This document shows, piece by piece, positions 3,478-60,450 of a stretch of 64,000 nucleotides of DNA. Made by a program: the position numbers and the translations under genes. The notes under the pieces were generated by a model. The model saw nothing but the letters and a program-made list of their open reading frames with translations. It made no database searches and was not told the DNA's origin. Within the stretch, counting starts at the first letter, position 1; every line of letters starts with the position of its first letter. This DNA is from Candidatus Limnocylindria bacterium. GTDB lineage: Bacteria > Patescibacteriota > Saccharimonadia > Saccharimonadales > JAGQNK01. The DNA is taken from contig DATHJH010000032.1 in NCBI GenBank assembly GCA_035489815.1, positions 32,301 to 96,300 on the forward strand, given 5' to 3'.

Positions 3478-3580
3478 GCTGAGTGCTGCCGTGGCCCATC
3501 CTGAGGGGTCAGCAAGCGCCTCGGCGGCCAAAGGCCGTCCGTAAAAGCGCTCCTCAGGATGGGCCACGGCAGCACTCAGC
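3478..3580 (+). repeat. family-1 nested hairpin element, copy A (subtype 1a)
   Basis: Perfect 29-nt arms at 3478-3506 and 3552-3580 enclose the core GGTCAGCAAGCGCCTCGGCGGCCAAAGGCCGTCCGTAAAAGCGCT. Confidence 0.9.
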
Positions 3581-6050: not shown

Positions 6051-6159
6051 CCGGAACGGCTCACCCTTACGAATTCGTCAGGCTAAAGCTAACGCCATGG
6101 GCTGACCGAAGGTCACCCATAAAGTGGCCTAGAGAATTCGTAAGGGTGAGCCGTTCCGG
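6051..6159 (+). repeat. family-1 nested hairpin element, copy B (subtype 1b)
   Basis: Perfect 26-nt arms at 6051-6076 and 6134-6159. Core is GTCAGGCTAAAGCTAACGCCATGGGCTGACCGAAGGTCACCCATAAAGTGGCCTAGA. Confidence 0.9.
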
Positions 6160-10157: not shown

Positions 10158-10263
10158 CCCATCACAAATACCCTCTTATTCCGTCAGGGTCAGCAAGCGC
10201 CTCCGAGGGCCCATGGCCCGAGGTAAAAGCGCCCTAGAGGAATAAGAGGGTATTTGTGATGGG
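10158..10263 (+). repeat. family-1 nested hairpin element, copy C (subtype 1a)
   Basis: Perfect 25-nt arms at 10158-10182 and 10239-10263. Core is GTCAGGGTCAGCAAGCGCCTCCGAGGGCCCATGGCCCGAGGTAAAAGCGCCCTAGA. Confidence 0.9.
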
Positions 10264-18899: not shown

Positions 18900-19006
18900 G
18901 GCCGAGTCAGCTACTTTCGTTCCTCTAGGGCGCTTTATGGGCGATCCTTACGGATCGGCCCATGGCGCTTGCTTACCCGGACGGAACGAAAATAACTGGC
19001 TCGGCC
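18900..19006 (-). repeat. family-1 nested hairpin element, copy F (subtype 1b, core on minus strand)
   Basis: 24-nt arms at 18900-18923 and 18983-19006 with 21 WC pairs. The minus-strand core is GTCCGGGTAAGCAAGCGCCATGGGCCGATCCGTAAGGATCGCCCATAAAGCGCCCTAGA. Confidence 0.9.
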
Positions 19007-24974: not shown

Positions 24975-25022
24975 AAACTGTACTTTTATTTTGTCCGGCC
25001 GGATATAAATGGAGTACAGTTT
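24975..25022. promoter_or_regulatory. imperfect 48-bp palindrome (candidate operator) upstream of the PaaX/Cas2-fold gene
   Basis: AAACTGTACT-N-GTCCGGCCGGAT-N-AGTACAGTTT. It shares its ends and its centre with the perfect palindrome at 25545-25598. Confidence 0.6.
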
Positions 25023-25033
25023 CAGAGGACATC

Positions 25034-25549
25034 ATGAAAAGAAGCAGGAGCACCAAAGATTTACCAAACTCAGCCCTGGCCTATGTACTGGAGGCCTTGA
25101 TCCCTTACTCTGATGCGAACGTAAAGCTAGCTTTCAAGCCGCACCTATTCTTTAACGACCTTGAGAACATTGCCCGGCAAAAGCAAAGCCTCAGCTACCG
25201 TCGTCAAACTTTACGGAATGCTTTTTACCACGCCAAGCGTAGTGGATTTATTGAGTTTAGTAAGTCTGGTGGCCCACGCCTTACGCGCAAAGGGGAAGCG
25301 TACTTAAAGCCCTATGAGCCAAGCAAGCTTGGCGACTCCGCACGACTCATGGTTATATTTGATATCCCGGAAGAACAGCGAGCCAAGCGTCGCTACCTAA
25401 GGCTCATACTTAGACAGTTAAAATTCAAAATGGTTCAGCAAAGTGTTTGGATAAGTAAGTACGATTGCAAAACGATTCTTCATGATGAGATCGAAGCGTA
25501 TGAGCTGCAGGCTTATGTTCAAATATACGAGTGCGTTCGATTATTATAA
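25034..25549 (+). CDS. PaaX-like / Cas2-fold domain DNA-binding protein
   Basis: 171 aa. The C-terminal RLMVIFDIPEEQRAKRRYLRLILRQLKFKMVQQSVWISKYD matches the ferredoxin-like Cas2/PaaX-middle-domain pattern. The N-terminal half is wHTH-like. Confidence 0.6.
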   Translation: MKRSRSTKDLPNSALAYVLEALIPYSDANVKLAFKPHLFFNDLENIARQKQSLSYRRQTLRNAFYHAKRSGFIEFSKSGGPRLTRKGEAYLKPYEPSKLGDSARLMVIFDIPEEQRAKRRYLRLILRQLKFKMVQQSVWISKYDCKTILHDEIEAYELQAYVQIYECVRLL

Positions 25550-25598
25550 CTGTACTCTAAAAATGTCCGGCCGGACATTTTTAGAGTACAGTTATAAG
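25545..25598. terminator. perfect 54-bp palindrome; candidate bidirectional intrinsic terminator and/or operator
   Basis: 27/27 perfect arms centred on GTCCGG|CCGGAC, flanked by A5/T5 runs. It contains the stop codon of the ORF at 25034-25549 and lies between convergent genes. Confidence 0.7.
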
Positions 25599-31681: not shown

Positions 31682-31782
31682 GCCGGCACCGACCACTCGC
31701 CCCCCTAGGGCGCTTTTACGAATTGCCTAACGGCGATTCGAGGCGCTTGCTGACCCTAGGGGGCCAAGCAGTCGGTGCCGGC
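31682..31782 (-). repeat. family-1 nested hairpin element, copy I (subtype 1a, core on minus strand)
   Basis: 26-nt arms at 31682-31707 and 31757-31782 with 22 WC pairs. The minus-strand core is GGGTCAGCAAGCGCCTCGAATCGCCGTTAGGCAATTCGTAAAAGCGCCC. Confidence 0.9.
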
Positions 31783-45415: not shown

Positions 45416-46798
45416 ATGCAAGACAGCCTGTGGCAAGCAGTACTGGGGGAGATAGAGCTGACGGTTTCCCGGGGTCATTACGTCACGTGGTTTAAAAATA
45501 CCCGGCTGCTCCGCCATCAGAACGACACGCTCGTCATAGGCGTTCAGAATGTCTTTGTAAAACAACAACTGGAACGCAAGTTCAATCAGCTCATAACCGA
45601 TACTTTAGAAAAAAACGGTGTAAAGCCGGAACACATCGAATACAAGATAGACTCTGGTATGGCTCAATCCCGAAAGGCAGATGATGAACTTTCCGGGACC
45701 ACCGTGCTCAGGAATCCTGAAAAAAGGTCTGTCGTCCAGGCAGCCGGCAAGTCCAGCCGTACCACGCTCACCCACACTTACCGCCAGGGACTGAATACGA
45801 AATATACCTTCGACAGTTTCATAGTTGGCTCCGGCAACGAACTGGCTTATGCTGCCTGCCAGGCTATCGCTCAAAATCCGGGCAGCAAGTATAATCCCCT
45901 CTTTGTCTACGGCGGCGTTGGTATTGGCAAAACACACCTCATTCAGGCCGCGGGCAACGCCGTTATCGCCAGGAATCCTGCTGCTCATGTCGTCTATGTT
46001 TCCACGGAACAGTTTGTGCAGGAGTTTCTGGATGCTATCCGGTACAAGAAAAATACCGATTTTGCCGGCTTTTACCGGAGCGCCGATGTGCTGATTATCG
46101 ACGATATGCAGTTTATCGCCGGTAAGGAAAAGACGCAGGAAGAATTCTTTCACACCTTTAATGCCCTTCACCAGGCCAACAAACAGATCATTATCAGCAG
46201 TGACAAGCCGCCGAAAGACATCCCCACCCTGGAGGAACGGCTGCGCAGCCGGTTTGCCTGGGGCATGAGTATAGATATGCAGATCCCGGACTTTGAGACG
46301 CGCTGTGCTATTGTCCAGACCAAGGCCCACGAGCACGCCACTACCCTGCCCCCGCCAGTGGTAGAGTTCCTGGCTAACCTCATCCAGACCAATATCCGTG
46401 AACTGGAAGGCGCCCTGAACCAACTGCTGGCTTTTTGTGAAATGAGGGGGCTGGAACCCGAACTTACCTTAGCCACCAGCCTGTTGGGCACCAGCAAAAC
46501 CCGGCCCAAGCATTTAAGTGCCAAGCAGATTATTGAACGAACCGCCAAGCACTTCCAGATCCCCCTGGAGGAAATGCTGGGCCCAAAAAGAGACAAAGAC
46601 ATCGTCGTACCCCGCCAGGTGGCTATGTATATGCTGCGGAGCGAACTACACCTGAGCTTCCCAAAAATCGCCCGGGAACTGGGCCGCAAGGACCACACTA
46701 CCGCCATTCATTCCGTCGAAAAAATCACCAGGGAATCCGGCCTGGACCCGGTTATAAAAGCCGCCATCACCGAAATCAAGGAGCGTCTCTATGCTTAG
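45416..46798 (+). CDS. dnaA: chromosomal replication initiator protein DnaA
   Basis: 460 aa. Walker A GGVGIGKTHL, DDMQFIAGKE, C-terminal DNA-binding KDHTTAIHS. Confidence 0.95.
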   Translation: MQDSLWQAVLGEIELTVSRGHYVTWFKNTRLLRHQNDTLVIGVQNVFVKQQLERKFNQLITDTLEKNGVKPEHIEYKIDSGMAQSRKADDELSGTTVLRNPEKRSVVQAAGKSSRTTLTHTYRQGLNTKYTFDSFIVGSGNELAYAACQAIAQNPGSKYNPLFVYGGVGIGKTHLIQAAGNAVIARNPAAHVVYVSTEQFVQEFLDAIRYKKNTDFAGFYRSADVLIIDDMQFIAGKEKTQEEFFHTFNALHQANKQIIISSDKPPKDIPTLEERLRSRFAWGMSIDMQIPDFETRCAIVQTKAHEHATTLPPPVVEFLANLIQTNIRELEGALNQLLAFCEMRGLEPELTLATSLLGTSKTRPKHLSAKQIIERTAKHFQIPLEEMLGPKRDKDIVVPRQVAMYMLRSELHLSFPKIARELGRKDHTTAIHSVEKITRESGLDPVIKAAITEIKERLYA

Positions 46799-47135
46799 AA
46801 TTAGCACTGACCCACAAACCCTGCCCGGAGGAATTTCCGGCTGTCAGTCAGGTACCATGAGTGCTAAAAATCTGTGGGAAATTTGTGCACAAGCTGTGCA
46901 GAGGCTGTGGGTTGGACTGGGACAAAACCGGCACCTTACACACAGGCGGCTGGCGGCTGGCGGGACACTGTGGGAAAAACCGGGATTTTTGCACGGGTTG
47001 TACCACTTTTGTACTCAGGATTTGCCCACATATTTTTATACCTTTACGCCTCTGTTGTTAGGACAATTGTCCACCCCGTCCACAGGCCCTACTAAAACTA
47101 CTACTATATATAATAAGTAATTAAGGAGTATAGGA
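46799..47135. other. candidate oriC (dnaA-dnaN spacer with DnaA-box cluster and AT-rich unwinding segment)
   Basis: TGTGGGAAA occurs at 46873-46881 and 46969-46977. Weaker boxes lie at about 46906, 47022-47030 (TTGCCCACA), 47067-47075 and 47078-47084. An AT-rich run sits at about 47096-47125. Confidence 0.65.
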
Positions 47136-48227
47136 ATGAAACTGCAAGTCACCCAGGAAAACCTCACCCGAGCCCTAAACAATGTCAGCCGGGTAGCTAA
47201 TACACGCGGCACCCTGCCCATTCTGGCGAACGTCCTGCTCAAGACCGTGGGTAATCGCCTCAGTATCGCTGCCACCAACCTGGATATTGCCATCACTCAT
47301 TACATTGGCTCCAAAGTCGGTGAAGAAGGCTCTATAACCGTCCCTGCCCGGTTGATGCAGGATTTTGTAAGCAGCCTGCCGAGCGGTGTCATAGACCTCA
47401 AGCTGGATGATTACAAGCTCAACATCAGTACTGACAAATACCAGTCGGTTATTAACGGCATTTCGGCCGAGGACTATCCGGTTATGCCAGCTATAGCTGA
47501 CGGCAAAAGCTGGAAAATAGCCGGCAAAACTCTCAAGGCCGGTCTACAGCAGGTGGTTATGGCGGCGTCAAACGATGAAGCCCGACCAGTTCTGACCGGG
47601 GTGTACCTTCACAGTCACGAAGGAGACCTGTATATGGTGGCCACAGACAGTTACCGCCTGGCCGAGAAGAAGCTTATGAAGTCCACTGACGAGGTGCAGC
47701 TTCTCATACCGGCTACCGCCCTCCAGGATTTGCTGCGTATTCTGGGCGAGTATGAGGGTGATGTGAATGTGACGCATGATGACCAGCAGGTGCTGTTCAA
47801 GGTGGGCGACATCGAGTTAGTTACCCGACTTATCGAGGGCAGTTACCCTGATTACCGCAAACTCATTCCGTCCAATTTTGCCTCCAGCGCCAAGCTGAAG
47901 CGGGCTGACCTCACAAACATTACCAAGGTGTCCAGCCTGTTCGCCCGTGAAAGTGCCGGCAGTGTGACTATCCACCTGGACGGTGAAAAATCCCAGGTGA
48001 GCATCCGCTCAGTCGCCTCGCAGTTAGGAGAGAACACATCTGCGGCGACAGCCGAGGTCACAGGCGACGGCATAATAACCCTTAATTCACGGTATATTCT
48101 GGATGCCCTGCATGCTCTCAGCGGCGAGGATGTCACCTTCTCTTTTAACGACAAACTGGAACCAACCGTCCTGGCCGACCCAAAGGCTGGCGACTATCTG
48201 CATGTCATTATGCCGCTCAAGTCGTAA
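47136..48227 (+). CDS. dnaN: DNA polymerase III beta sliding clamp
   Basis: 363 aa with a typical N-terminus (MKLQVTQENLTRAL...LPILANVLL) and three-domain length. Confidence 0.95.
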   Translation: MKLQVTQENLTRALNNVSRVANTRGTLPILANVLLKTVGNRLSIAATNLDIAITHYIGSKVGEEGSITVPARLMQDFVSSLPSGVIDLKLDDYKLNISTDKYQSVINGISAEDYPVMPAIADGKSWKIAGKTLKAGLQQVVMAASNDEARPVLTGVYLHSHEGDLYMVATDSYRLAEKKLMKSTDEVQLLIPATALQDLLRILGEYEGDVNVTHDDQQVLFKVGDIELVTRLIEGSYPDYRKLIPSNFASSAKLKRADLTNITKVSSLFARESAGSVTIHLDGEKSQVSIRSVASQLGENTSAATAEVTGDGIITLNSRYILDALHALSGEDVTFSFNDKLEPTVLADPKAGDYLHVIMPLKS

Positions 48228-48645
48228 ACGGATTTTTGACAGTTAGACCACCATACTTACGTCCATCTTGTAAATCCTCGCTATAGAGAATGGCGCAGTT
48301 GAGATCTATAGCAGCTTGTACAATAAGTGCATCGTAAAAACTGAGAGAGTGCCCAGCGTGAAGGGCGACAGCACTGTTATAAAAGTAAATATCCGGAGTG
48401 TGTTTTAAGAGCCTCCTCATAAAAGTATTGAGTATACTTTCAAGATCAAGATCCAGGGTGGTTTTTTTAAATTTCCCGGTAGCAATATTGCAAAACTCTT
48501 GAACCACCTGTGAACTGATGCAGCCCCGGCCGGACCGCAGTGCATCCCGGATAAGCGTGTTGGCCGTGCTTTGCTTAACCTTATCCCGAGGGTCTAGCGC
48601 ATAAATGAGAATGTTTGTATCTAGAAAATAGCTCTGTTTTGGCAA
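48217..48645 (-). CDS. PIN-domain toxin (VapC-like)
   Basis: 142 aa. YFLDTNILIYAL (Asp1), SFYDALIVQAA, ILYSEDLQ acidic residues. Confidence 0.8.
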   Translation of the reverse strand: MPKQSYFLDTNILIYALDPRDKVKQSTANTLIRDALRSGRGCISSQVVQEFCNIATGKFKKTTLDLDLESILNTFMRRLLKHTPDIYFYNSAVALHAGHSLSFYDALIVQAAIDLNCAILYSEDLQDGRKYGGLTVKNPFTT

Positions 48646-48647
48646 GT

Positions 48648-48866
48648 CTATCTCTCGTTCATTTCTTCTCTGGTAAATTTACGTCCTGGCTGGACGTAGC
48701 TTAGTCGCTTCATAAGTTCATTGTATTCCCTGACGGCTCGTTCTCGATCTGTGTATTGTTTGAGCCACTCACGAAAAAGGTTGTTAAGCGTAGTATTCTG
48801 GGAACGCGCTCGTTCTCTGGCAGCTTCAATAAGCTTTTCATCGGCAGAAAGAGTAATGTTTTTCAT
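48648..48866 (-). CDS. ribbon-helix-helix antitoxin (VapB/CopG-like)
   Basis: 72 aa. MKNITLSADEKLIEAARERA beta-strand-helix pattern. It lies 2 nt upstream of the PIN gene. Confidence 0.7.
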   Translation of the reverse strand: MKNITLSADEKLIEAARERARSQNTTLNNLFREWLKQYTDRERAVREYNELMKRLSYVQPGRKFTREEMNER

Positions 48867-48935
48867 ACGACAATAGTGTACACAGCTATAGTGCTACCGT
48901 CAATAAAGCTTCTCTCTATCGTATACTGGTAACAC

Positions 48936-49997
48936 ATGTTGGACTCAGTGAGATTACAGAGGTTTCGGTCGTACCGGGACGAGTCTTTTGAATTTGACCC
49001 CGGGGTGAATATTATCGTCGGGCCGAATGCCAGCGGCAAGACAAATCTGCTGGAGGCGCTCCTTGTCAGCTACACGGGCGGTTCCTTTCGGGCTAAGGAT
49101 GGAGAGCTGGTGGCTTTTGGAGCGCCCTGGGCGCGGCTGGATGTCCTGGGGCCTGGTGGCGGTCGTACAGTAAAACTGCTCGTGCAGGAAAACGGGTTGG
49201 TAAAGAAAGAGTTTGTCATTGGGGATCAAAAGCTTGTGCGCTTGAGTTTGCAGAAGTCGCTGCCGGTAGTGTTGTTTGAGCCGAATCACCTGCTTCTGCT
49301 GCACGGCTCACCCGATCTCAGGCGTGAGTATATGGACGCTCTGCTGGAGCAGACCGTGGCGGGGTATGGGAAGATCCGGCGGGATTATCGCCGGGCTTTG
49401 GCTCAGCGTAATGCGCTCTTAAAACGTGGTGCATCCGCCCGGGGTCAGCTATTTGCCTGGGACATCCGGCTGAGCGAGATTGGTGCGCGTATTGCAAGCG
49501 AGCGTAATGCTCTTGTGCGGCGAATGAACGGACAGTTAGGGTTGCTCTACCACTCCATGGCCCGTTCTCGTGCCAATACAGTGACTGTTACATATGCAGC
49601 CAGCTGTGACATCACCCAGTACAGCTCAAGCCTGCTACACGCCCTGGAAAAGCGCCAGGACGTGGATATTGAACGTGGATACACTACAATCGGACCGCAT
49701 CGTGAGGATTTGGTCGTGGCTTTTGACGGGCGGGAGGCGTCGCAGGTTGCTTCCCGCGGAGAGACGCGTACCATATTGTTGGCCCTCAAGGTCATGGAGC
49801 TACAGTTCATAGAGGAGGCCCGCGGCACTCAACCGATCCTCCTCCTGGATGACGTCTTCAGCGAACTGGACGGTGCCCGCCGCCGGGCCCTGACAGAAGT
49901 CATCAGCGGCTACCAAACCTTTATAACCACCACCGACGCGGACGTCGTGGTCCAGCATTTTATGAATAAGTGCCGGATCATTCCTCTCGGCGGCTAG
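48936..49997 (+). CDS. recF: DNA replication and repair protein RecF
   Basis: 353 aa. Walker A GPNASGKTNLLEAL, signature/Walker B LLLDDVFSELD. Confidence 0.95.
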   Translation: MLDSVRLQRFRSYRDESFEFDPGVNIIVGPNASGKTNLLEALLVSYTGGSFRAKDGELVAFGAPWARLDVLGPGGGRTVKLLVQENGLVKKEFVIGDQKLVRLSLQKSLPVVLFEPNHLLLLHGSPDLRREYMDALLEQTVAGYGKIRRDYRRALAQRNALLKRGASARGQLFAWDIRLSEIGARIASERNALVRRMNGQLGLLYHSMARSRANTVTVTYAASCDITQYSSSLLHALEKRQDVDIERGYTTIGPHREDLVVAFDGREASQVASRGETRTILLALKVMELQFIEEARGTQPILLLDDVFSELDGARRRALTEVISGYQTFITTTDADVVVQHFMNKCRIIPLGG

Positions 49998-50011: not shown

Positions 50012-50117
50012 GCCACACATGCTACCTGCTGAATCTCTAGGCCGCTTTATAGGTGGCCTTACGGCCAGCCTATGGCGCTAGCTTTAGCCTGACGATTCAG
50101 CAGGTAGCATGTGTGGC
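50012..50117 (-). repeat. family-1 nested hairpin element, copy M (subtype 1b, core on minus strand)
   Basis: Perfect 24-nt arms at 50012-50035 and 50094-50117. The minus-strand core is GTCAGGCTAAAGCTAGCGCCATAGGCTGGCCGTAAGGCCACCTATAAAGCGGCCTAGA. Confidence 0.9.
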
Positions 50118-51807: not shown

Positions 51808-52611
51808 TCATCCCTCTGCCGGGCAGCCCTGGCCGCTGGTAAACTGCGTGAAATAGTTGGCGGCCTGGGTTTGGCGGCGTGGAACGGCCTGGCTCATCCG
51901 GCCGGGTATTTCGTAGTGCCGGGTAATGATTTCGCTGGCTGCCCGGGGGTCGGCGTCTGCTCCTAGTGCTGTAAGCGGGTCAAGCGTACTGTTTCTGTAA
52001 GGGCCGTTTAGTTCACGCCAGATTGCCTCCAGCTGGACGCTCCTGGTGCCTGGTGCCTGGCCGAGTTCGTCGGCGACTATCTGCAGCTGATCCTTCCTGC
52101 CCGGCGAGGTGAACTGTATAAGTCCATAGCCGCCCCCCAACTGGTCGCCGCCGCTTCGCCGCTCGCGGCTAATGTAGATACGACCGGCAGAGTCTTTATA
52201 CTGCACGGGCGGTATCTGGTCGTCCAGGCTGGTGGGCTGCCCGGCCCGGGATATTTCACCCCTTGAGTTTTGCCAGCTGTACTCAACCAGCCGGGGTTCA
52301 AAATGCGCTTCTTCTACCATGTTACCCAGGAAGCCAGCTGCCACCCCCGGCGCTAAGCTTCTGGTCTGGGTAAAGTAGTTCCATATCTCCTCGGCGGCGT
52401 TGCAGCCTTGCAGGGGTGCTCCGGCAGCCGGGTCGGTCTGTCTTTGGGCGTCTATGACCTCGTGATCAAAATGGCCGATTTCTTTGTCGAATATGGCTTT
52501 TTGTTCTCTGGACAGGGCTGCTACGGAAACAGCCGGAATAAACAGCTGGGCAACCAGGCCGGCCAACCCCAACCCTATCAAAAGTTTTGCTGCTACCTTG
52601 TGTCGTCTCAT
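51808..52611 (-). CDS. secreted peptidoglycan hydrolase candidate (phage-tail-lysozyme-like domain)
   Basis: The start at 52611 (MRRHKVAAKL) is preceded by an AGGAGG RBS. Signal anchor present. FLGNMVEEAHFEP and GGGYGLIQFTSPGRKDQL resemble the GN..ES...P / GiGl.QWT..R pattern. Confidence 0.6.
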   Translation of the reverse strand: MRRHKVAAKLLIGLGLAGLVAQLFIPAVSVAALSREQKAIFDKEIGHFDHEVIDAQRQTDPAAGAPLQGCNAAEEIWNYFTQTRSLAPGVAAGFLGNMVEEAHFEPRLVEYSWQNSRGEISRAGQPTSLDDQIPPVQYKDSAGRIYISRERRSGGDQLGGGYGLIQFTSPGRKDQLQIVADELGQAPGTRSVQLEAIWRELNGPYRNSTLDPLTALGADADPRAASEIITRHYEIPGRMSQAVPRRQTQAANYFTQFTSGQGCPAEG

Positions 52612-52612
52612 A

Positions 52613-55366
52613 TTATCCTCCTGACGTGGACCAGTGCCACGATTCACTCGGCAGATTACTCAGCCCGAACCGGGCGGCGTTAGCCACCAGCCAGTTCCAG
52701 CCCGCGTCGCCGCGCCGGACTGTACCGCCGTTTAGCGTAAAGTCTATGGCCAGCCCGCGTTCGTGCATTGATTTTCCCGGTATGGCCGTTGGTATACGGC
52801 AAGTGCTTGGGCTGGCAGTCCAGACGTCCCGGCAGCCATTCTGGGTGCGCAGCCGTATCTGGTCGGCCGTATCGCGCCAGCCCCCGCCGGCCAGATTTAC
52901 GCCCGCCGCATGGGCCTCGGTGAGCAGCTGATCAATGCGGCCGCCAATGCACCGGTGCACCCGAACGCCTTGTACCACGACAGTTTCGGACTCGGGAACG
53001 GGTGCTTGCGGGCAGCCGCCGGCGTCGAGTGCAGGGCTGCCGGCAGGGGTCACCACTTCGCTGTCGGCCTGGCCGTACAGCTGGTCGCAGGCCCCTTCAT
53101 CCAACCCTTCATAACAGTCCAGGGCAAGCACGTTAAGGGTGTAGGCGAGGTAATAACGGTAGCGTAGTACTTCTTCCCTGCCTCTGTCTGCGTGGCACTT
53201 TGCCGGAAGTTGGACAAGGTCGTCTTCTTCCCCGGCCTTGCTATAGCGCAGATTCCCTTCGCGGGTGATGGTCATGGCGTGGCAGTCATCGCCGTATTCG
53301 TTGTTTAAACGCTCCAATTCATCAGGGTGATCTTCAAAGTAATTGCCGACTTCAAAGGGGTTTTCAAACCGGGGGTCGTCTTGCTCTGCTTCGGTAAAGC
53401 CGACAGTAGCAAAACCGTAGTCATAGCCGTTGGCGTCCTGCGCGATTGCTCTGCTGCCGGCAAAGGGCGCGGCAATCGCGCTGCTTATAACATTCGGCAG
53501 CCGGGCAATTGTGGCGATGGCCTCTGTCCTGGTCCGCGGTACCTTCATGAGCGTCGTTGCGGCCAGCGAATCAGCGTTAAAAATGTTCAGGTAGCGTTCG
53601 TAAAGGCTGGCGTTGGCCAGGTCCTGCATTCTTTCTTCGGTCGCCAGTTGCCTGACAGCGCGCGCTTCTGTTGTGCTAAGTTCGCTGCCGCCGGTCATCC
53701 GCATTTGTTCACGGGCCGCCAGCGCATTGCCGACGTTTACGATGCCACCCCACATGGCGCCTTTGGCGGCGGTGCTGGCAATCTGGCTGGCGTAGCGGTC
53801 CCGCAGCCACTGGATCCACTCGTCCTTGGTTCGGCCAGTCGGGCTCAGTGCCAGGTTAATGGCGCCGTCCACCAGGCTCTGAACCCTCCCTACGCCGGGC
53901 AGGTTGTTAATAAAATCACCAGTTTCATTAATCAGATCGCAGGCATCTGGTCCAACGCCGACCCCCCCTATTTCGACCCTGGTCGTTATTCGGTCAACAG
54001 CATCTAGGAGCGCGGGTCTCTCCCTGGAGCCGGGCTTGAGCCCGTTTGCTGACAACAGGTCTACGCCGGCTGCCGCGCCATTGCCGCTGGCGGCCTGAAT
54101 GCCGGAGTCTGCCGCCCAGGAGGTGTCGGTTTCCTGGTCGTAGAAATGCTCGGCGTACACCCCCATTTCTTCAATACTCAGATCCTCAAAGCTCTTGATC
54201 TGGTCGCCCATAGCAACGGCGCCCAGGCCCATACGTATCATGGTCAGCTGGCTTTCCAGGTTCTGGGCGTCTATAGACTCGCTAAAGCCCTTGGCGGCAC
54301 ATACCAGGGCGACGGCCGCAGCCGGACCCCGGGCGGTCCGAAGAGCTGTGCTGAACTTTTGCCGCAGCCGGCCCAGGCGGGTCGTGTTAACGTCTATGTC
54401 TGCACCGCCGGTCCGGTGCCGGTTGGCTTCTTCGTCTCTGAGCTTTTCCTTCTCTTGCCGCCGCTGGTCGCGGCTTAGGGCAAATCTGTCCGCGGTTTGC
54501 CGGAAACGATTCCTGAACGGGTGGAATAAGCCATCGGTTCCACCACGTTTTATATGTAATCTTGCCCCCATCCAGGCACTGATCCGGTTGACTTTCAGCG
54601 CTTTGGTGGCTGCTCTGGTAATGCGATTCCGATCCCGAAACGGCATGTCCTGGGTTACGACACCTCTGGCACCATTTACCGGGTTACCGTCTATATCTAC
54701 AGCGCTCTGAAAAGAGCCGTTTACGTCTATATCCTGCGCTCGCATTCGATCAAGGGTAGGCTTAGCTTTTACCGGGTCAGTCACCTGAAAACCTATGCCG
54801 CGCTGTGTTCCCGCCTGATACAACGGCCTCATACCGTTGTCGCTGAAACGACTTGCCCAGCGGTCGGCCCGCTGGTTGCCCCAGAGCCCCATGCGCCCCC
54901 GGGCAGCTTTGCCGGCCAGGGCGTAGACCACGAACCGGCCTGAGAATTTGTCGCCAAGGCTTTCGGAGGGGCTGTGGTGAAAAATCTTCATAAACTGGGA
55001 GACCTGAAGGAACTGCAACGGCCCGGACGTAATGCCGCCAATGCCCAGAATGCCGCCTACCACAAGGCCCGCTATGCCGCCCGTCACGGCGGTGCGGCGG
55101 GTAAGCAGCCCCTTAATGCCCCTTGAGCGCGAACTGCCTCCTTTGCCGCCGGCCTGCTGCTGGTCGTTTGACTGCGGAGTGACTTCTCCTTCGCTGTTTA
55201 CAGCAAATACCCTATCTCTTTCGGTGTTGTCCGGGCTATCCGCTGCCTGCTGGTCGTTTGGCTGGGAGGTCGCTTCTCCGTCATTGTTTACACTAAACAC
55301 TCTGCCTCTTTCAGACTCGCCAGTGTCTGAGGTGTATCCGTTTTGCTGTGGTGGAGGTTGTGCCAT
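52613..55366 (-). CDS. 917-aa T4SS-associated membrane protein with C-terminal M15B (VanY-type) peptidase domain
   Basis: Disordered N-terminus with a 30-aa tandem repeat, a Gly-rich TM, a large central domain, and a C-terminal SMHERGLAIDF (SxHxxGxAxD) plus ESWHW zinc-peptidase signature. Confidence 0.7.
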   Translation of the reverse strand: MAQPPPQQNGYTSDTGESERGRVFSVNNDGEATSQPNDQQAADSPDNTERDRVFAVNSEGEVTPQSNDQQQAGGKGGSSRSRGIKGLLTRRTAVTGGIAGLVVGGILGIGGITSGPLQFLQVSQFMKIFHHSPSESLGDKFSGRFVVYALAGKAARGRMGLWGNQRADRWASRFSDNGMRPLYQAGTQRGIGFQVTDPVKAKPTLDRMRAQDIDVNGSFQSAVDIDGNPVNGARGVVTQDMPFRDRNRITRAATKALKVNRISAWMGARLHIKRGGTDGLFHPFRNRFRQTADRFALSRDQRRQEKEKLRDEEANRHRTGGADIDVNTTRLGRLRQKFSTALRTARGPAAAVALVCAAKGFSESIDAQNLESQLTMIRMGLGAVAMGDQIKSFEDLSIEEMGVYAEHFYDQETDTSWAADSGIQAASGNGAAAGVDLLSANGLKPGSRERPALLDAVDRITTRVEIGGVGVGPDACDLINETGDFINNLPGVGRVQSLVDGAINLALSPTGRTKDEWIQWLRDRYASQIASTAAKGAMWGGIVNVGNALAAREQMRMTGGSELSTTEARAVRQLATEERMQDLANASLYERYLNIFNADSLAATTLMKVPRTRTEAIATIARLPNVISSAIAAPFAGSRAIAQDANGYDYGFATVGFTEAEQDDPRFENPFEVGNYFEDHPDELERLNNEYGDDCHAMTITREGNLRYSKAGEEDDLVQLPAKCHADRGREEVLRYRYYLAYTLNVLALDCYEGLDEGACDQLYGQADSEVVTPAGSPALDAGGCPQAPVPESETVVVQGVRVHRCIGGRIDQLLTEAHAAGVNLAGGGWRDTADQIRLRTQNGCRDVWTASPSTCRIPTAIPGKSMHERGLAIDFTLNGGTVRRGDAGWNWLVANAARFGLSNLPSESWHWSTSGG

Positions 55367-55387: not shown

Positions 55388-57289
55388 TTATAACCCTGGA
55401 TACAGCCTATTGTTCAAGTCGATTGTGCCCTGCTGCCCGGCCAGTTCGCCCTGCGCCTCTATTTGGGCGACTTGCTCGGGGTTGGTGGTAATCAGGCCGG
55501 TCTCTGTCGGACTGGCGGCAATCTGAATGTGCACATGGTTCTGCCCGGCAAAGAACAGGCCTTGCCCTACCGGGAACTGGCTCAGACGTTTCTTTTCCTC
55601 GCTTGTAAGCTTAAAAACGCCTGCAAGGACATCTACAGCGGAAGTGGACTGCTTGAGCAGTATTTGCATAGAGGCGTTGGCGACAATCGCCCGGCCCATG
55701 CGGCTGCCCATAAAGTCTTCCACGTCCTGAGTTATGGTGGTGATTCCCAGGTTGTATTTGCGGGCGCGCTTGGCCAGCGAGAAGAGGAAGGTTGCCGAAT
55801 CTTCGTATTTCATAAGCTGCCAGGCCTCGTCCACTACCAGAATGCGCCGCTTTTTATCTGTCTTGGTCCGGTTCCAGATAAAGTTCAGGACAATGTACAT
55901 AGCTACCGGGCGGAGCTCGTCCTCCAGATCCCGGATGTTAAAGACCACCAGCTGGTTGTTAATGTCTATGTTGCTTTGCTGGCTGAATATGCCGGCAAAG
56001 GTTCCGGTGGTGTATTTGCGCAGCCGCTGGGCCAGCTGCGGCCCGGTGCCCCCCATGTGCAACAGCGTGTCGTACAGGTCGGAAATGGTCGGCGGCTGGG
56101 CGGTATGAGTCAGCGGGTCATTGGTAATGCCGGCCTTGGCATAGGTCTCGATCAGGGCAGAGTCCAGGTCGGCCTCTTCTACCGGGCTGAGCGCCGGGAT
56201 GGCTGTTGCCTGGCCGCCCATCATCTGGGTCTGGGCGCCGCCCATCATGAGCCGCAGCAGGCCATGCAGGGTAATGAGGTTGCTGCGCAGTGCGCTGTCG
56301 GCTTCATCAGTATCCACCACCTTTGGCAGGTCAAAGGGATTTATGCGTGTCGGTGAAGTCAGGCTCAACCGCACATAGGCGCCGCCGACGGCCTCGGCCA
56401 TGCGCTGGTATTCGTTTTCCGGGTCTATGATGAACACCTCGGTGCCGAACATCATGCTGCGAAGCGCCTCTAACTTGACGGTGAACGATTTACCGGCACC
56501 GGACTTGGCAAAAACCACGGAGTTGCCGTTTTCCAGAGAGAACCGGTCAAAAATGACCAGGCCGGAGTTGTGCATATTGATACCGTACAAAATGCCGTTA
56601 TCTTGCGTGAGGTCGGCACTGGTGAACGGAAAGCTGGTGCTGAGCGCGCCGGTGTTAAAGTTGCGGCGGATTTGCAGCTGGTCGCTAAACTGCGGCACGG
56701 TGCTGTTAAAGCCCTGTTCCTGTTGGGAGGTAGCCGGCTTGGAGTAAAGCAGCTGCTGCCCCAACAGGGATTCGACCTTGTGGGTGACAAACTCCAACTC
56801 GTCCTGTGATGAAGCGTACAGCGTAAAGTAAAAGCCAAAGCGGAAGAACCTTTCCTCGCCCACCTGCAGTTTGTCGCGCATTTCCTCGGCGTCCAGGATG
56901 GCCGCTTGCTTGCCCGGGTCGCGGACCCGGCCCTTTTCGGCGTCTATCTGGATACCGGCTTCCAGCTGCGAAACCTTTTTGCGCAGATTTTCCAGTACCA
57001 CCTGGCTTTCCACCGGGTAAATGAACAGTGACATATCTATGACCTCATCAAGATTGATCATAGGCGACAGCCAGCCGGTAAAGACCTGCCGGGGATAGCC
57101 ATACACATAGTAGGTACGAGCCAGCCGGGTACCCAGCTGAAAGTGCGTTGCCATATATTCCAAAGAAGCCGGTGCAATGAAATCGCGCAGCGCAGTGACG
57201 CCCTTCTGAAAGGCCGCCTGCACCTCCTGCTGTTCTGCCATACGTTGCTGTTGAGCTATGGCGACCGGGTCAAGCTGCTGTTTAGCCAC
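55388..57289 (-). CDS. virB4: VirB4-family T4SS ATPase (C-terminal two-thirds of a Gram-positive VirB4/PrgJ/TcpF-type protein)
   Basis: 633 aa. GTG start with a GGAAGGAG RBS. YYVYGYPRQVFTGWL, Walker A FAKSGAGKSFT, Walker B RRILVVDEAWQL. Confidence 0.9.
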   Translation of the reverse strand: MAKQQLDPVAIAQQQRMAEQQEVQAAFQKGVTALRDFIAPASLEYMATHFQLGTRLARTYYVYGYPRQVFTGWLSPMINLDEVIDMSLFIYPVESQVVLENLRKKVSQLEAGIQIDAEKGRVRDPGKQAAILDAEEMRDKLQVGEERFFRFGFYFTLYASSQDELEFVTHKVESLLGQQLLYSKPATSQQEQGFNSTVPQFSDQLQIRRNFNTGALSTSFPFTSADLTQDNGILYGINMHNSGLVIFDRFSLENGNSVVFAKSGAGKSFTVKLEALRSMMFGTEVFIIDPENEYQRMAEAVGGAYVRLSLTSPTRINPFDLPKVVDTDEADSALRSNLITLHGLLRLMMGGAQTQMMGGQATAIPALSPVEEADLDSALIETYAKAGITNDPLTHTAQPPTISDLYDTLLHMGGTGPQLAQRLRKYTTGTFAGIFSQQSNIDINNQLVVFNIRDLEDELRPVAMYIVLNFIWNRTKTDKKRRILVVDEAWQLMKYEDSATFLFSLAKRARKYNLGITTITQDVEDFMGSRMGRAIVANASMQILLKQSTSAVDVLAGVFKLTSEEKKRLSQFPVGQGLFFAGQNHVHIQIAASPTETGLITTNPEQVAQIEAQGELAGQQGTIDLNNRLYPGL

Positions 57290-57403
57290 GGAATGCTCCT
57301 TCCAGTCGCGAAGTCAGGAGTGCGGAGTCAGAAGAAAGGAGATCTAACCCCTTCGCACTTCGCACTTCTATCTTCTCACTCCTAAAAGGCGACAGCATTT
57401 TAC

Positions 57404-58381
57404 TCATTGGAGGGTCCTATCCAGGTTGGGCTGGGGCGCCAGGCCCTGGCCCTTGGTGACAACCGGCGCACTCAGATCATTAAAGTTCTTGAGCTGCTGG
57501 CGGGTGGCGGTATCGGGGTTGTAGGTGTCATAATACAGTTCAATTAATTCCTGTGTATCAAGCGGCAGGCCCTGTATGTTGCACTGCAGCAGGCCGGAGA
57601 GCACGGCTTGAACCCGGTTGCGCAGCTCATCTTTGGCGGTGTTGAGGTCCTGTTCGTTGATAACCACGTGCTGCTCTTGTTTACTAAAAAGGCCTTTAAG
57701 CCCGGAGAAAAAGTTTTTACTTTGTGTCAAAGCCTTTTGCACGTCAAGCGTTGGAAAATACGGGATGACCACATAGAACTTCTTGTCCATAATGTTCGTC
57801 TGGAGCGCCAGATTGTCCACAAAGCCCAAATAATCTTCCATCAGTAGCGCCAGCAGCATGTTGTCGTGTTCCTGGCGGATTTTGTCCAACTTTTCCAGAT
57901 ACGGCCGGATGTCTACCTTTTGCGAGCGGATAAATATTTGCACCGGGAAATACAGCGAGTTCAAAAATCCCTGGTAGGCATACTCAACCGCCTCGCGCTC
58001 TTCACCGCTCATCAGGTCAAAGTTTATGGACTTGACCATAACGACCGAACGGAAGGAACCGTCGTTCATGATGACAATGCCGTCGCGGATTTCTGCTATC
58101 TGGAGGGCGTTTTGCGTGCTGTTAGGGTTGCCTTTGGCTGCCGGCGGTTTTGTTTGTTGAGGGGGTTGGACTGCTGCCGGGGCCGTCTGTTGGTACGGAT
58201 TTGGAGGTTGTACGGGCGGCGCTGCATAAGGCGCCGGGTTGTAAGGAGCTGCCGCCGGAGCTTGCCCGGAGGGGGCAGCGTAAGGAGTACCGGGGCCGCC
58301 ACTGGCGGCTCCCATAGGTTGCTGAGGATTCATATCTGGATTCATAGGGTTTGTACTAAGGTCTCCCACCGGATGATTCAA
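57404..58381 (-). CDS. P/Q-rich protein carrying the extreme N-terminal VirB4-type domain (split VirB4, part 1)
   Basis: 325 aa. After ~95 aa of low complexity comes IAEIRDGIVIMNDGSFRSVVMVKSINFDLMSGEEREAVEYAYQGFLNSLYFPVQIFIRSQKVDI, the pattern that opens Tn916 Orf16/PrgJ-type VirB4 proteins. Confidence 0.65.
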   Translation of the reverse strand: MNHPVGDLSTNPMNPDMNPQQPMGAASGGPGTPYAAPSGQAPAAAPYNPAPYAAPPVQPPNPYQQTAPAAVQPPQQTKPPAAKGNPNSTQNALQIAEIRDGIVIMNDGSFRSVVMVKSINFDLMSGEEREAVEYAYQGFLNSLYFPVQIFIRSQKVDIRPYLEKLDKIRQEHDNMLLALLMEDYLGFVDNLALQTNIMDKKFYVVIPYFPTLDVQKALTQSKNFFSGLKGLFSKQEQHVVINEQDLNTAKDELRNRVQAVLSGLLQCNIQGLPLDTQELIELYYDTYNPDTATRQQLKNFNDLSAPVVTKGQGLAPQPNLDRTLQ

Positions 58382-58386
58382 GGGTT

Positions 58387-59589
58387 TTAGTGAAGGTTAA
58401 TCACCACTTCGCCATCTGACAGACCTTGCTCTTTAGGCTTTTTATTTGCCTGGCGGGCAATGGTTGCCACATCTAGATCATCATTGGTTGCAAGTCCAAT
58501 TATATCAGGGTCCGGGGCTTGTGTCACAGGCTGATCATAGGCTGGCGGGAGGGCCGGCTGAACAGGCATGGCCGCGGCTGCGCTGGCAGCCGCTTTGGCC
58601 TCTGCCTGTTGCTCTTCCAGGGTTTTGATGACCCGCATGTTGCCGTAGTTTTTCGGTGTCTTTTGTTCGGCGTGAATTTTTTCTAATAATTCCTCTTCTG
58701 TCAGGGGGCCGCCGGCCGGGGCAAGCGGCTTAAGCGGCATTCCCTGTGATTGCTGGATTGCTGCCGGGTCGGGCGTGACAATAGTGCTCCCCGGTGCGGC
58801 GGGGAGACTGCCTGGCCCCGGGGGTTGCATTGCCGGGCCGTTGCTGTTCAAAAACCAGTAGTCAGGCTGCGCTGGCGGCTGGCTTGCTTGGGGTTGACCA
58901 GGTACCGGGGTTGGTAACTGCACAGACAGCGGCTGCGGGTTTTTCATATTGCTGACAATTTGATCGCGGTGCGCTTTGGAAGAAGCGCTGATCATCCGGT
59001 CAAGGCTTTGTGCCGTCGGGTTGTTTTGTTCGTCCAGTATGTCGTCGGTGGCGGTCGTATCATCCGGGGCTGCTGCCGACATAGAGCTAATATCAATCAG
59101 CCGGTCAGAACCGGCGCCTGCAGCGGCAAGGGTCGGCGTGCTGAACAGAGCGGCATTGACATTTTTTATAGCCCAGCCCCGGCTGTCGATAGTGTTGGCC
59201 AGGGCCTCCAAACGCGAACGAACTTCCCCCTCGGACATATTTTTAGTCAGAATCTTTTCAATCTTTTTCGGTGCGGTAATGGTCACCAGATCTCTGGTGC
59301 CGCTCTGATTCCAGATTCGCTTTCGGGGCTTCAGGGCAAAACGGATCTTAGCCAACAGCCACGTTTCCGTCGGCTGTTCCCCGCCGAACGGTAGGGCCAA
59401 CAGACTAAAAAAGATCGTGTGCGGCAGCAACGGCAACACCAAAAACCAGGCTACAATAAACAGCCGAAAACCTACAAACAGCGAAACAGCAACAATTATA
59501 AGATAGACAAACTGCCGTATACCAAAAGGCCCGATCAGCTTATCCTCTGCCTCAATATCCTGAATAACCTTGTACGTCGCCATTAACAT
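58387..59589 (-). CDS. PrgI-family (VirB3-like) T4SS membrane protein with long Pro/Ala/Gln-rich C-terminal tail
   Basis: 400 aa. The N-terminus YKVIQDIEAEDKLIGPFGIRQFVYLIIVAVSL is followed by 2 TM helices, and the gene lies directly upstream of the VirB4 genes. Confidence 0.65.
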   Translation of the reverse strand: MLMATYKVIQDIEAEDKLIGPFGIRQFVYLIIVAVSLFVGFRLFIVAWFLVLPLLPHTIFFSLLALPFGGEQPTETWLLAKIRFALKPRKRIWNQSGTRDLVTITAPKKIEKILTKNMSEGEVRSRLEALANTIDSRGWAIKNVNAALFSTPTLAAAGAGSDRLIDISSMSAAAPDDTTATDDILDEQNNPTAQSLDRMISASSKAHRDQIVSNMKNPQPLSVQLPTPVPGQPQASQPPAQPDYWFLNSNGPAMQPPGPGSLPAAPGSTIVTPDPAAIQQSQGMPLKPLAPAGGPLTEEELLEKIHAEQKTPKNYGNMRVIKTLEEQQAEAKAAASAAAAMPVQPALPPAYDQPVTQAPDPDIIGLATNDDLDVATIARQANKKPKEQGLSDGEVVINLH

Positions 59590-59653: not shown

Positions 59654-60031
59654 CTATGACAAAAGAGTAACGTCAATGAGGCTACCGTAGTTTTTTGCCA
59701 GCTTGCCATCAAAAGTTACAAACTGCTTACAGTCACCCAATACCGCACAAGCCACCTGCAATGCGTCTTCAAAATCGTCATCCTGGCGGTTGGTGATAGC
59801 CCAGCGCAAGACCGGCGAGCCCATATCCGTTATCTTATAGCTCTGAATATCTTCCAGCAGATCGGCCAGCGTATGTTTTTCTTTTTGACCAAAATATACA
59901 TACAGATGCGCCGAAAGCGGAGATATACATGCTTGCTCAGCACGAACCAGAGCTGCTGCTGCAACCTCGGCCTTCCTGCGCCCCCGCAAAAGCACTTCCA
60001 GCAAAATGTTTGCGTCAAAACAGGTCTTCAT
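59654..60031 (-). CDS. PIN-domain toxin (VapC-like)
   Basis: 125 aa. CFDANILLEVL (Asp), DFEDALQVA, VTFDGKL. Confidence 0.75.
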   Translation of the reverse strand: MKTCFDANILLEVLLRGRRKAEVAAAALVRAEQACISPLSAHLYVYFGQKEKHTLADLLEDIQSYKITDMGSPVLRWAITNRQDDDFEDALQVACAVLGDCKQFVTFDGKLAKNYGSLIDVTLLS

Positions 60032-60036
60032 GCATG

Positions 60037-60450
60037 CTATCCGCGATATGGAGGCTTATGCTTTGGGTCCGTGTCAAGCATCTGATACCTGACTCTCAAA
60101 ACCCTGGTCCTGTCATCCTCCAGCTTGACTGGAGGATCCAGTAGAATAACAAGAATACTGGATTGTCTGGTCAAGCCAGACAATGACGAGGTTTTGAGAG
60201 TCAGGTTCTGATGATACAGCTCTTTGACGGATTTATTCGGATCAAATGCAGGCTTACTGCTTGTGCCCTTGCGGTTGGCAGTGCGGACAAGAAAGCGCTG
60301 GACTGCCTCGCGGCTACCGGGCGCAGTCTTCTTGGCGGACGGAACTTCCGGGGTAATAGTAAAAGCAGGCTTAGACCGATACGTCACCCGGATACGTTCC
60401 CCGGCCCTTGCCCGTGCAACAACCTTGTCCAGATTTGTCACACTATGCAA
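60037..60450 (-). CDS. Phd/YefM-like antitoxin ORF with an in-frame repeat-element insertion in its 3' third
   Basis: 137 aa. The N-terminus (VTNLDKVVARARAGERIRVTYRSKPAFTITP) is antitoxin-like. The codons covering 60087-60206 are the MITE-like element. The ORF ends 5 nt before the PIN gene. Confidence 0.55.
   Translation of the reverse strand: MHSVTNLDKVVARARAGERIRVTYRSKPAFTITPEVPSAKKTAPGSREAVQRFLVRTANRKGTSSKPAFDPNKSVKELYHQNLTLKTSSLSGLTRQSSILVILLDPPVKLEDDRTRVLRVRYQMLDTDPKHKPPYRG
60087..60206. mobile_element. family-2 MITE-like element, copy N
   Basis: 120 bp with perfect 17-bp terminal inverted repeats ACCTGACTCTCAAAACC / GGTTTTGAGAGTCAGGT. It is flanked directly by the 6-bp direct repeat TCTGAT (60081-60086 and 60207-60212). 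It has three internal hairpins. Confidence 0.8.

Follow-up and report, generated by a model that had tools for sequence, protein, structure and literature searches.

A probable two-gene VirB4 in a Saccharimonadales genome and a predicted relay reading frame at its junction

Introduction

When the beginning and the remainder of a conserved gene lie side by side as separate open reading frames (ORFs), is the gene broken, or is the protein built from two chains? This question is raised for virB4, a gene of type IV secretion systems (T4SS), by positions 55388-58381 of a 64,000-nucleotide (nt) stretch of contig DATHJH010000032.1 (assembly GCA_035489815.1), which we refer to as the window. The original prediction, made from the letters alone, saw here a VirB4 homologue divided between two separately initiated ORFs, named A and B below, and favoured a stable gene fission while leaving pseudogenisation and sequencing error open. 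According to our analysis, the locus is very probably the standard two-gene VirB4 of Saccharibacteria and of pGO1-type Gram-positive conjugation systems, in which A and B would form one protomer and would be translationally coupled.

The split arrangement of trsD and virB4 has already been published, and the locus is a correct rediscovery of it. In the part of that study considered here, TrsD is described as homologous to the VirB4 N-terminus, is treated as a separate component and has no assigned function (Quinonero-Coronel et al., 2025, PMC12102498). TrsD-like proteins are given there as the most abundant T4SS component of Patescibacteria and usually adjoin virB4: of 2272 homologues counted across 2221 Patescibacteria assemblies, 1664 are associated with virB4. 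Outside Patescibacteria, the same account gives TrsD for the pGO1 subclass of MPF_FATA only. It places the VirB4 proteins of Patescibacteria as a clade inside MPF_FATA and notes that dnaA is often close to the system. A TrsD homologue is essential in Southlakia epibionticum ML1 according to transposon sequencing (Wang et al., 2023, cited in PMC12102498). The only element of our locus that may be new is the junction between the two genes, where a hairpin is crossed by a short ORF that we call the relay.

Results and discussion

A conserved split

The analysis starts from three features.

57404..58381, minus strand: ORF A, 325 amino acids (aa), TTG start; TrsD-like/TraC-like, read as the first part of the VirB4 N-terminal domain
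57290..57403, minus strand: intercistronic spacer, 114 nt
55388..57289, minus strand: ORF B, 633 aa, GTG start; read as a VirB4 ATPase without the first part of the N-terminal domain

Both ORFs were found exactly as predicted. The motif block that opens VirB4 proteins (IAEIRDGIVIMNDGSFRSVVMVKSINFDLMSGEEREAVEYAYQGFLNSL) is located in A, behind ~84 residues rich in proline and glutamine (P/Q-rich), and the next block (YYVYGYPRQVFTGWL) is located in B together with the ATPase domain. B has its own GTG with the ribosome-binding site GGAAGGAG 6 nt before it, and the stops foreseen for the spacer are present (TAG, TAG and TGA, in-frame after A's TGA). The predicted GAAGTGC tandem exists as well, but lies at 57351-57368 according to Tandem Repeats Finder (TRF) and not at 57330-57350.

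A and B share a reading frame (58381-57289 = 1092 = 3 x 364), which taken alone is suggestive of a nonsense mutation. The corresponding explanation, an otherwise intact virB4 broken in this genome only by a recent nonsense or frameshift mutation or by an assembly error, is nevertheless one to which we give almost no credence. Because A's TGA and three more in-frame stops lie between the two parts, no single mutation explains the split. Judged by the positions of A's stop and B's start, A is terminated and B is separately initiated in 79 of 79 assessable genomes among 80 representing Saccharibacteria species, and an independent set of metagenome loci was likewise split throughout (71/71 assessable). 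Among these 150 loci, no relative with a single ORF was found. Junction types differ between species (-8, -4, -1, 0 to +5, and long spacers), with a 1-nt stop/start overlap (TGATG or TAATG) in 44/79, and A and B are in the same frame in 12/80 species genomes only. Both ORFs are full length and highly conserved, their sequences indicating strong purifying selection on each, and identical or near-identical sequences occur in independent public assemblies (P0001, P0121, P0122). Since the split and both ORFs are conserved across relatives and gene order is kept, pseudogenisation and sequencing error are excluded. The stable two-gene arrangement of the original prediction thus holds; the event behind it may have been a fission or, in the reverse direction, a fusion.

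The ATPase part

B reaches 350.9 bits against the CD1110-family VirB4 model NF045971 (curated cut-off 325; E 1.5e-104), covering profile positions 178-733 of 752, and matches positions 229-734 of TIGR00929. It contains the Pfam domains PF19044 (TraG P-loop), PF12846 (AAA_10) and PF01935 (DUF87), and its residues 226-601 align to the structure of the VirB4 C-terminal domain 4AG5 (E 2e-47), leaving ~225 residues in front of the ATPase domain. On these sequence and structure matches, we identify B as a VirB4 ATPase. The 120 B homologues listed measure 628-644 aa, are 87-100% identical and are covered over 99-100%; the start of B is therefore taken as conserved. Three features of B are used below.

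57296-57303, minus strand: Shine-Dalgarno-like (SD) sequence GGAAGGAG, 6 nt upstream of the GTG of B, paired in the minimum free energy (MFE) structure of the spacer
56486..56506, minus strand: Walker A, KSGAGKS, residues 262-268, from the translation, aligned to the P-loop of 4AG5 and TrwK
55826..55843, minus strand: Walker B, ILVVDE, residues 483-488, from the translation, aligned to VLVVDEAW of 4AG5

The TrsD-like part

Upstream of B, A consists of a variable tail and a conserved domain.

58130..58381, minus strand: P/Q-rich low-complexity N-terminal tail of A, ~residues 1-84, varying in length and sequence between species
57407..58129, minus strand: conserved domain of A, residues 85-325, ~240 residues, aligning to residues 2-228 of the fused relative P0365

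The alignment of the A family has no alignable columns before residue ~85, and the AlphaFold2 (AF2) confidence score pLDDT is <50 over most of residues 1-92. The true start of A is probably not the TTG but an ATG at 58345 (M13). This column is invariant across 42 homologues, which begin with MDPN or MNPN; the public gene call (P0001, 303 aa) begins at M23. Against the A proteins from 80 species genomes of Saccharibacteria, the domain itself shows 58-88% identity, and 109 columns are invariant among 42 A-family sequences. At least 6764 homologues of A exist; the 120 listed measure 257-367 aa and all carry PF26593 (TraC-like). The records of P0001, a protein identical to A over 93% of its length, list this family as well, and it is from the public precomputed annotations of homologues that PF26593 is assigned to A. 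Our own Pfam scan of A gave only a chance alpha-amylase match (E 0.012), PF26593 being apparently missing from the Pfam copy scanned.

The similarity of A to VirB4 N-domains, proposed by the original prediction, was recovered at the level of the family. Taken alone, A matches the CD1110 VirB4 model at profile positions 4-112 of 752 (E 5.5e-5; 21.6 bits, below the cut-off of 325), Mbov_0397 VirB4 at positions 100-252, TIGR00929 at positions 19-137, and TrsD/TraD (NF041427) in a weak single-sequence match (E 4e-5; 23.5 bits against a curated cut-off of 200). NCBIfam E values of the single sequence to the VirB4 and TrsD models lie between 2e-5 and 7e-5. Among 40 diverse stand-alone relatives of A, 38 match TrsD (best E 1.4e-11), 36 Mbov_0397 VirB4, 26 CD1110 and 11 TIGR00929 (best E 2.5e-9). 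In sequence terms, the family-level signal that links A to VirB4 N-termini and to TrsD is solid. A is also, as is typical of TrsD/TraD, a small stand-alone protein encoded directly upstream of an N-terminally short virB4.

Together A and B cover positions 4 to 733 of the 752 of the CD1110 profile. The break falls within the N-terminal domain (~profile positions 112-178) and does not coincide with the transition from the N- to the C-terminal domain. It was mapped solely from NCBIfam profile coordinates, because profile searches against PDB sequences, with the A family or the fused family, did not reach the N-terminal domain of TrwK. No single chain of ~750-900 aa at this locus carries both the N-terminal and the ATPase domain, and by their profile matches it is the two genes together, neither of them alone, that constitute the VirB4 family member here.

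Several results weigh against this assignment of A. Its single-sequence scores to the VirB4 and TrsD models (~21-24 bits) are far under the curated cut-offs of 200-643 bits. The AF2 model of A alone, built with 42 close homologues, was poor (pLDDT 52) and was not used as evidence; Foldseek with this model gave TrwK as best match at a non-significant E of 0.56. A profile of the A family searched against PDB sequences matched no solved structure. Binding of A to B, finally, is a prediction from sequence.

Fused relatives

An exhaustive search of 50%-identity cluster representatives returned 2276 clusters that match the A domain, and 149 of the 150 best have a length of 125-478 aa. The remaining one, P0365, is a single chain of 898 aa. 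A aligns to its residues 2-228 (35% identity, E 1e-45) and B to its residues 310-889 (51% identity), and the segment between these is proline-rich. No stop interrupts this ORF, which was encountered on five contigs. It belongs to a fused clade of ~65 clusters with lengths of 850-910 aa, mostly labelled Berkelbacteria or Patescibacteria, and complete or long Berkelbacteria assemblies contain fused ORFs of 906 and 868 aa. The alignments within this clade display the collinearity of A and B directly. Compared with our locus, the Berkelbacteria-like form (P0365, L007, L170, L172) has the same two modules in the same order with prgI upstream, but as one ORF of 850-910 aa, in which the N-terminal P/Q tail is missing and ~90 disordered, proline-rich residues link the modules.

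In the AF2 model of P0365 (97-sequence alignment), the A-like domain (~20-215) folds independently with a pLDDT of ~80-90, residues 219-313 form a disordered linker and the remainder is VirB4. Foldseek aligned the whole chain of the model to TrwK/VirB4 of R388 (8rtd_O; E 3e-20, 931 columns) and its C-terminal domain to 4AG5. The predicted TM-score (pTM) of the model is only 0.46, and the packing of the A-like and B-like parts is for this reason not established.

Two Berkelbacteria VirB4 gene calls, P0456 (582 aa) and P0460 (578 aa), are truncations of the fused 906- and 868-aa ORFs. At the corresponding loci (L170 3029-5749; L172 3131-5737) the calls start ~970 nt and ~870 nt downstream of the real start, with an uncalled stretch after prgI. 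An alternation of fission and fusion within Berkelbacteria, considered from these two calls, was dropped, both being truncated calls of fused ORFs.

How the two parts may work together

We posit that A supplies the first part of the VirB4 N-terminal domain, and B the second part (~residues 1-225) and the RecA-like ATPase domain, and that the two would come together without a covalent link as one functional VirB4 protomer. In R388, VirB4 dimerises through an interface mediated by its N-terminal domain, and it is this domain that VirB3 wraps (PMC9259494). The gene order prgI - A - B mirrors virB3 - virB4, and A may accordingly be the membrane-proximal surface that binds VirB3/PrgI, supplied in trans, while B would form the hexameric motor. 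The predominance of 1-nt overlaps between the genes argues for translational coupling and a fixed stoichiometry; from this junction anatomy, A and B would be made in a fixed ratio.

Alternatively, A could be an independent accessory protein (an adaptor, regulator or substrate receptor) derived from a duplicate of the VirB4 N-terminus or merely resembling it, with B as a naturally short VirB4. This would suit the lack of an assigned function for TrsD and its position away from virB4 in Gracilibacteria, as given in the part of the study cited above (PMC12102498), as well as the long disordered tail of A, its ~100 C-terminal residues outside VirB4 profile coverage, and the fused form, in which a disordered linker of ~90 residues joins the modules and packing is not demonstrated by a model with pTM 0.46. 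On the other hand, the VirB4 profile matches of A and B are collinear and do not overlap, and B is devoid of the N-terminal segment found in every single-chain VirB4. Adjacency is fixed, stop/start overlaps predominate, coupling appears to be preserved even across insertions, and a whole clade makes both parts as one chain. We consider an accessory role of this kind unlikely.

The junctions also admit programmed recoding, by which a single polypeptide would be made beside the separate products through one -1 frameshift at the overlaps, or two via the relay frame in the window. At TGATG junctions B is in the -1 frame of A, and here the relay is -1 to A and B -1 to the relay; the linker of the fused clade occupies the equivalent position. 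No slippery heptamer or conserved stimulatory structure was identified, the junction types vary from -8, -4 and -1 through 0 to +5 to long spacers, and B has its own SD and a start at a conserved position, all of which makes recoding highly improbable.

Two non-covalent parts of one VirB4 thus being our preferred explanation, the locus can be compared with known systems. It is a member of the Patescibacteria TrsD + VirB4 system and, to judge by its sequence, differs from it in nothing essential: it comes from the same lineage (its nearest relatives are Saccharibacteria/Saccharimonadales metagenome-assembled genomes, MAGs), and the gene pair stands beside a prgI/virB3-like gene near dnaA. Junction overlaps, hairpin spacers, relay ORFs and the fused Berkelbacteria-type form are absent from the description in the part of PMC12102498 considered here. 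As in TrsD/TrsE (TraD/TraE) of pGO1/pSK41, the gene for a shortened VirB4 ATPase is directly preceded by one for a small protein that remotely resembles the VirB4 N-terminus. Unlike the pGO1/pSK41 TrsD, A lies far below the NF041427 cut-off (23 vs 200 bits), the Saccharibacteria protein has a P/Q-rich tail, and the system is chromosomal and, according to the literature, serves epibiotic growth and not plasmid transfer. The same gene pair, its two members overlapping, was found on Bacillota plasmids of Pontibacillus (274 aa + 621 aa, the latter annotated as CD1110 VirB4) and C. botulinum (334 aa + 660 aa). With single-chain VirB4 proteins (the CD1110 family of Firmicutes; TrwK of R388, PDB 7O41/8RTD; T. 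pseudethanolicus 4AG5) the locus shares a B that passes the CD1110 cut-off and a C-terminal domain that aligns to 4AG5, but it encodes two polypeptides with the break inside the N-terminal domain.

Other divisions of the protein were also encountered. On a Haloarcula pelagica plasmid (L005, 4980-8932), an A-like domain is at the N-terminus of a 556-aa protein that is followed by a 761-aa protein. B has a weak SCO6880_fam match at residues 57-199 (E 0.0014), and a Streptomyces match (H9) turned up for A-like domains. SCO6880-type actinobacterial proteins may thus, on this weak match, hold the part of the N-terminal domain that is located in B here, and VirB4 may have been split at different points in different lineages.

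A hairpin spacer crossed by a relay frame

Most relatives have no spacer at all between the two genes. The spacer is an insertion that varies between lineages, and even close relatives differ in having or lacking one. Spacers measuring 42-190 nt are limited to a minority of genomes, in all of which the A protein is >=~70% identical to that of the window. Two elements define the junction of the window.

57351..57368, minus strand: GAAGTGC x 2.6 tandem, 5' arm of the hairpin (TRF period 7, 100% match)
57282..57407, minus strand: relay mini-ORF, 41 codons, MSKMLSPFRSEKIEVRSAKGLDLLSSDSALLTSRLEGAFRG; its ATG overlaps A's stop (ATGA), its TAA overlaps B codons 2-3

The spacer is predicted to fold into one long imperfect hairpin (57292-57399; MFE -41.6 kcal/mol, z -2.9, with 3 of 200 shuffles as good) that base pairs with B's GGAAGGAG in the MFE structure. 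The block imperfectly complementary to the tandem is located at ~57306-57335, and the dominant period is 7 nt in both spacer halves. Spacers of different genomes are mutually unalignable and share no sequence. In their common architecture, the 5' part consists of tandem repeats of ~7 nt and the 3' part contains a block that is roughly complementary to them, a period of 7 or 14 being dominant in most halves. Fold z-scores were -2.9 for the window, -3.4 for L015, -2.5 for L067 and -2.3 for L059, and many spacers have a small CCUCC-loop-GGAGG hairpin over the ribosome-binding site of B. No Rfam match was obtained to the spacer, or at any other relevant place, at gathering thresholds or at E <= 1, and within the 64-kb window the spacer repeat has no second copy and the relay junction no counterpart. 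We also considered whether the 7-nt repeats could be attC sites or CRISPR-like; both readings were rejected, the repeats being tandem arrays and not single core sites.

The relay frame is open throughout the spacer of the window, while the other two frames have 3 and 4 stops. The same design was found in 19 of 19 gene-free spacers of relatives, namely the first 13 loci and 6/6 new metagenome loci. In each, the start codon of the relay overlaps the stop of A (ATGA or TAATG), and its stop codon overlaps the start of B (TAATG, TGATG or TAGTG) or is a TAA in B codons 2-3; 0-7 stops were counted in the non-relay frames. Dinucleotide shuffles leave the frame open with a probability of 0.03-0.55 at a given locus, and these values multiply to ~1e-13 over the first 13 loci. 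The relay peptides are not conserved, and it would therefore be the act of translation that matters. As a sequence pattern, the relay design implies selection for translational coupling of A and B.

In mechanistic terms, a hairpin-forming element of 114 nt would have been inserted at a former stop/start junction in this genome, and coupling would have been kept by the relay ORF, which starts on A's stop, would be read through the hairpin and ends on B's start. The hairpin would otherwise sequester the ribosome-binding site of B, and translation of the relay would melt it. We tentatively put forward, with somewhat less than even confidence, that such spacers form an undescribed intercistronic class of Patescibacteria: elements with complementary arms of ~7-nt repeats, different in sequence in each genome, sometimes with an intervening-sequence-type gene in the loop, inserted exactly at the trsD-virB4 overlap and always crossed by a relay mini-ORF that would hand ribosomes from A to B while melting the hairpin that hides the ribosome-binding site. 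Three points count against the relay mechanism: support for the hairpin is uneven (5 of 10 spacers fold clearly better than their shuffles, 3 of 10 worse), translation of B could begin at its own SD with no help from the relay ORF, and translation of the relay is a prediction.

The closest precedent, by analogy, resembles it in design. A mycobacterial interspersed repetitive unit (MIRU) is an intercistronic insertion with a short ORF that overlaps the neighbouring stop and start codons (Supply et al., 1997, summarised in PMC12548453). Like it, the ORF in the spacer of the window overlaps both neighbours, so that translation would be handed on and the insertion would not be polar. Unlike MIRUs, which are dispersed in multiple copies, the spacer is single-copy within the window, forms a hairpin with 7-nt-periodic complementary arms whose sequence differs in every genome, and is seen mainly at one operon junction, in addition to one case in Berkelbacteria. 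There (L172, 2995-3141), prgI and the fused virB4 are bridged by a mini-ORF of 48 codons, which overlaps the end of the former and the start of the latter and runs through 7-nt repeats of the GTTACCA type. This case extends the relay design beyond Saccharibacteria and to a junction other than TrsD-VirB4.

A separate observation concerns two Saccharimonadales genomes (L071, 4723-5136; L017, 4732-5133), where a 23S_rRNA_IVP gene (PF05635; E 7e-13 and 5e-35 for L017 and L071) lies exactly at the A-B junction and its start overlaps A's stop. The gene is in the loop of a long hairpin formed by inverted tandem-repeat arms (fold z -3.2 in L017). As in 23S rRNA intervening sequences (IVS), which have a gene for the PF05635 four-helix-bundle protein, the junction of L017 and L071 thus has a gene in the loop of a stem from inverted repeats. 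Unlike them, the element is in an mRNA between protein genes, and the spacer of the window has no such gene. A gene of this family in a repeat-armed stem at the same junction suggests an IVS-like origin of the spacers.

Hence the spacer might also be a selfish or processing element that separates the cistrons (an IVS-like hairpin cut by RNase III, a terminator or attenuator, or a MIRU-like insertion or one resembling a miniature inverted-repeat transposable element, MITE), for which an open relay frame would be a condition of tolerance. The rRNA intervening sequence architecture in L017 and L071 speaks for it, as do the differences in spacer presence among close relatives and the view that it is the coupled ORF which makes a MIRU insertion neutral (PMC12548453). 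Within the 64-kb window, no other copy was found that would point to mobility, and the spacers of different genomes share no sequence; on selection for A-B coupling, moreover, such an origin agrees with our own explanation. We regard it as possible, if doubtful.

Genomic neighbourhood

In its gene context B matches expectations for VirB4, lying in a T4SS cluster with PrgI upstream and VanY and lysozyme-type hydrolases downstream.

58387..59589, minus strand: PrgI-family (VirB3-like) membrane protein gene, immediately upstream of ORF A, with a long P/Q-rich C-terminal region
52613..55366, minus strand: 917-aa protein with a C-terminal VanY (peptidase M15) domain (PF02557, E 3.5e-6, residues 808-903)
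51808..52647, minus strand: 279-aa Phage_lysozyme2 protein (PF18013, E 2.1e-22), a candidate VirB1-like muramidase

The PrgI gene matches PF12666 in Pfam (E 1.6e-8, residues 7-92), and the 917-aa VanY protein is the downstream operon partner and probably the secretion system's cell-wall hydrolase. Relatives keep the order prgI (virB3-like) - A - B - hydrolase. In L001, L002 and L003 the order prgI - TraC-like - ATPase recurs, and L001 has a VanY protein and a Phage_lysozyme2 + Peptidase_M23 protein at the positions of the window hydrolases. A TrbL_3 (VirB6-like) gene is also carried by relatives. The genes dnaA, dnaN and recF (45416-49997) lie directly beside the prgI-A-B cluster, a few kb away, and no relaxase was noticed near the locus.

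Between the prgI-A-B block and two upstream genes (381 aa, 470 aa) without a Pfam match, a PIN-domain gene (125 aa, PF01850) and its 137-aa upstream partner (59654-60450, minus strand) have the look of a VapBC-type toxin-antitoxin pair. A protein identical to B is labelled 'Candidatus Limnocylindria bacterium' at NCBI, and a few close relatives are labelled Limnocylindrales, Verrucomicrobiae or Parcubacteria, nearly all others being Saccharibacteria/Saccharimonadales. The deviant taxon labels of these MAG records (P0121, P0223, L057 and L043) are probably binning or labelling errors.

Other repeats in the window

The window also contains six intergenic palindromic elements of 101-109 nt.

3478-3580, plus strand: palindromic element
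6051-6159, plus strand: palindromic element
10158-10263, plus strand: palindromic element
18900-19006, minus strand: palindromic element
31682-31782, minus strand: palindromic element
50012-50117, minus strand: palindromic element

They have copy-specific outer arms of 24-33 nt that are 86-100% complementary, and they share a core of ~45 nt composed of ...GTCAGG, TCAGCAAGCGCC, a short GC hairpin and TAAAAGCGCCCTAGAG..., in this order. Compensatory changes between copies were observed in 13 of 20 consensus pairs. Rfam gave no match even at E <= 1, and no such element was found in the 172 fetched loci. They could be a structured RNA or a family resembling MITEs or repetitive extragenic palindromic (REP) sequences. 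In addition, a perfect 54-nt palindrome (25544-25597) and a related imperfect one of 48 nt (24975-25022; AACTGTAC...GTCCGG/CCGGAC...) flank a 171-aa ORF at 25034-25549. A microRNA-model match of the 54-nt palindrome was spurious.

Implications

If the proposal on the spacers is true, equal or ordered co-translation of the split VirB4 halves would be under strong selection. The gain or loss of one repeat unit would break the relay frame, because the unit is not a multiple of three, and could, speculatively, switch ATPase production. If real, the relay junction would be a clean natural case of coupling maintained across an insertion, and would show the MIRU principle for a second time, in a phylum very far from the first.

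For annotation, a split virB4 in Saccharibacteria and other Patescibacteria should not be flagged as a pseudogene, and the 'hypothetical protein' upstream of virB4 may be read as the detached, TrsD-like first part of the VirB4 N-terminal domain. The secretion system is reported to be essential for epibiotic life, and the split and fused forms of its motor would constitute a natural experiment on the part of VirB4 that docks to VirB3/PrgI.

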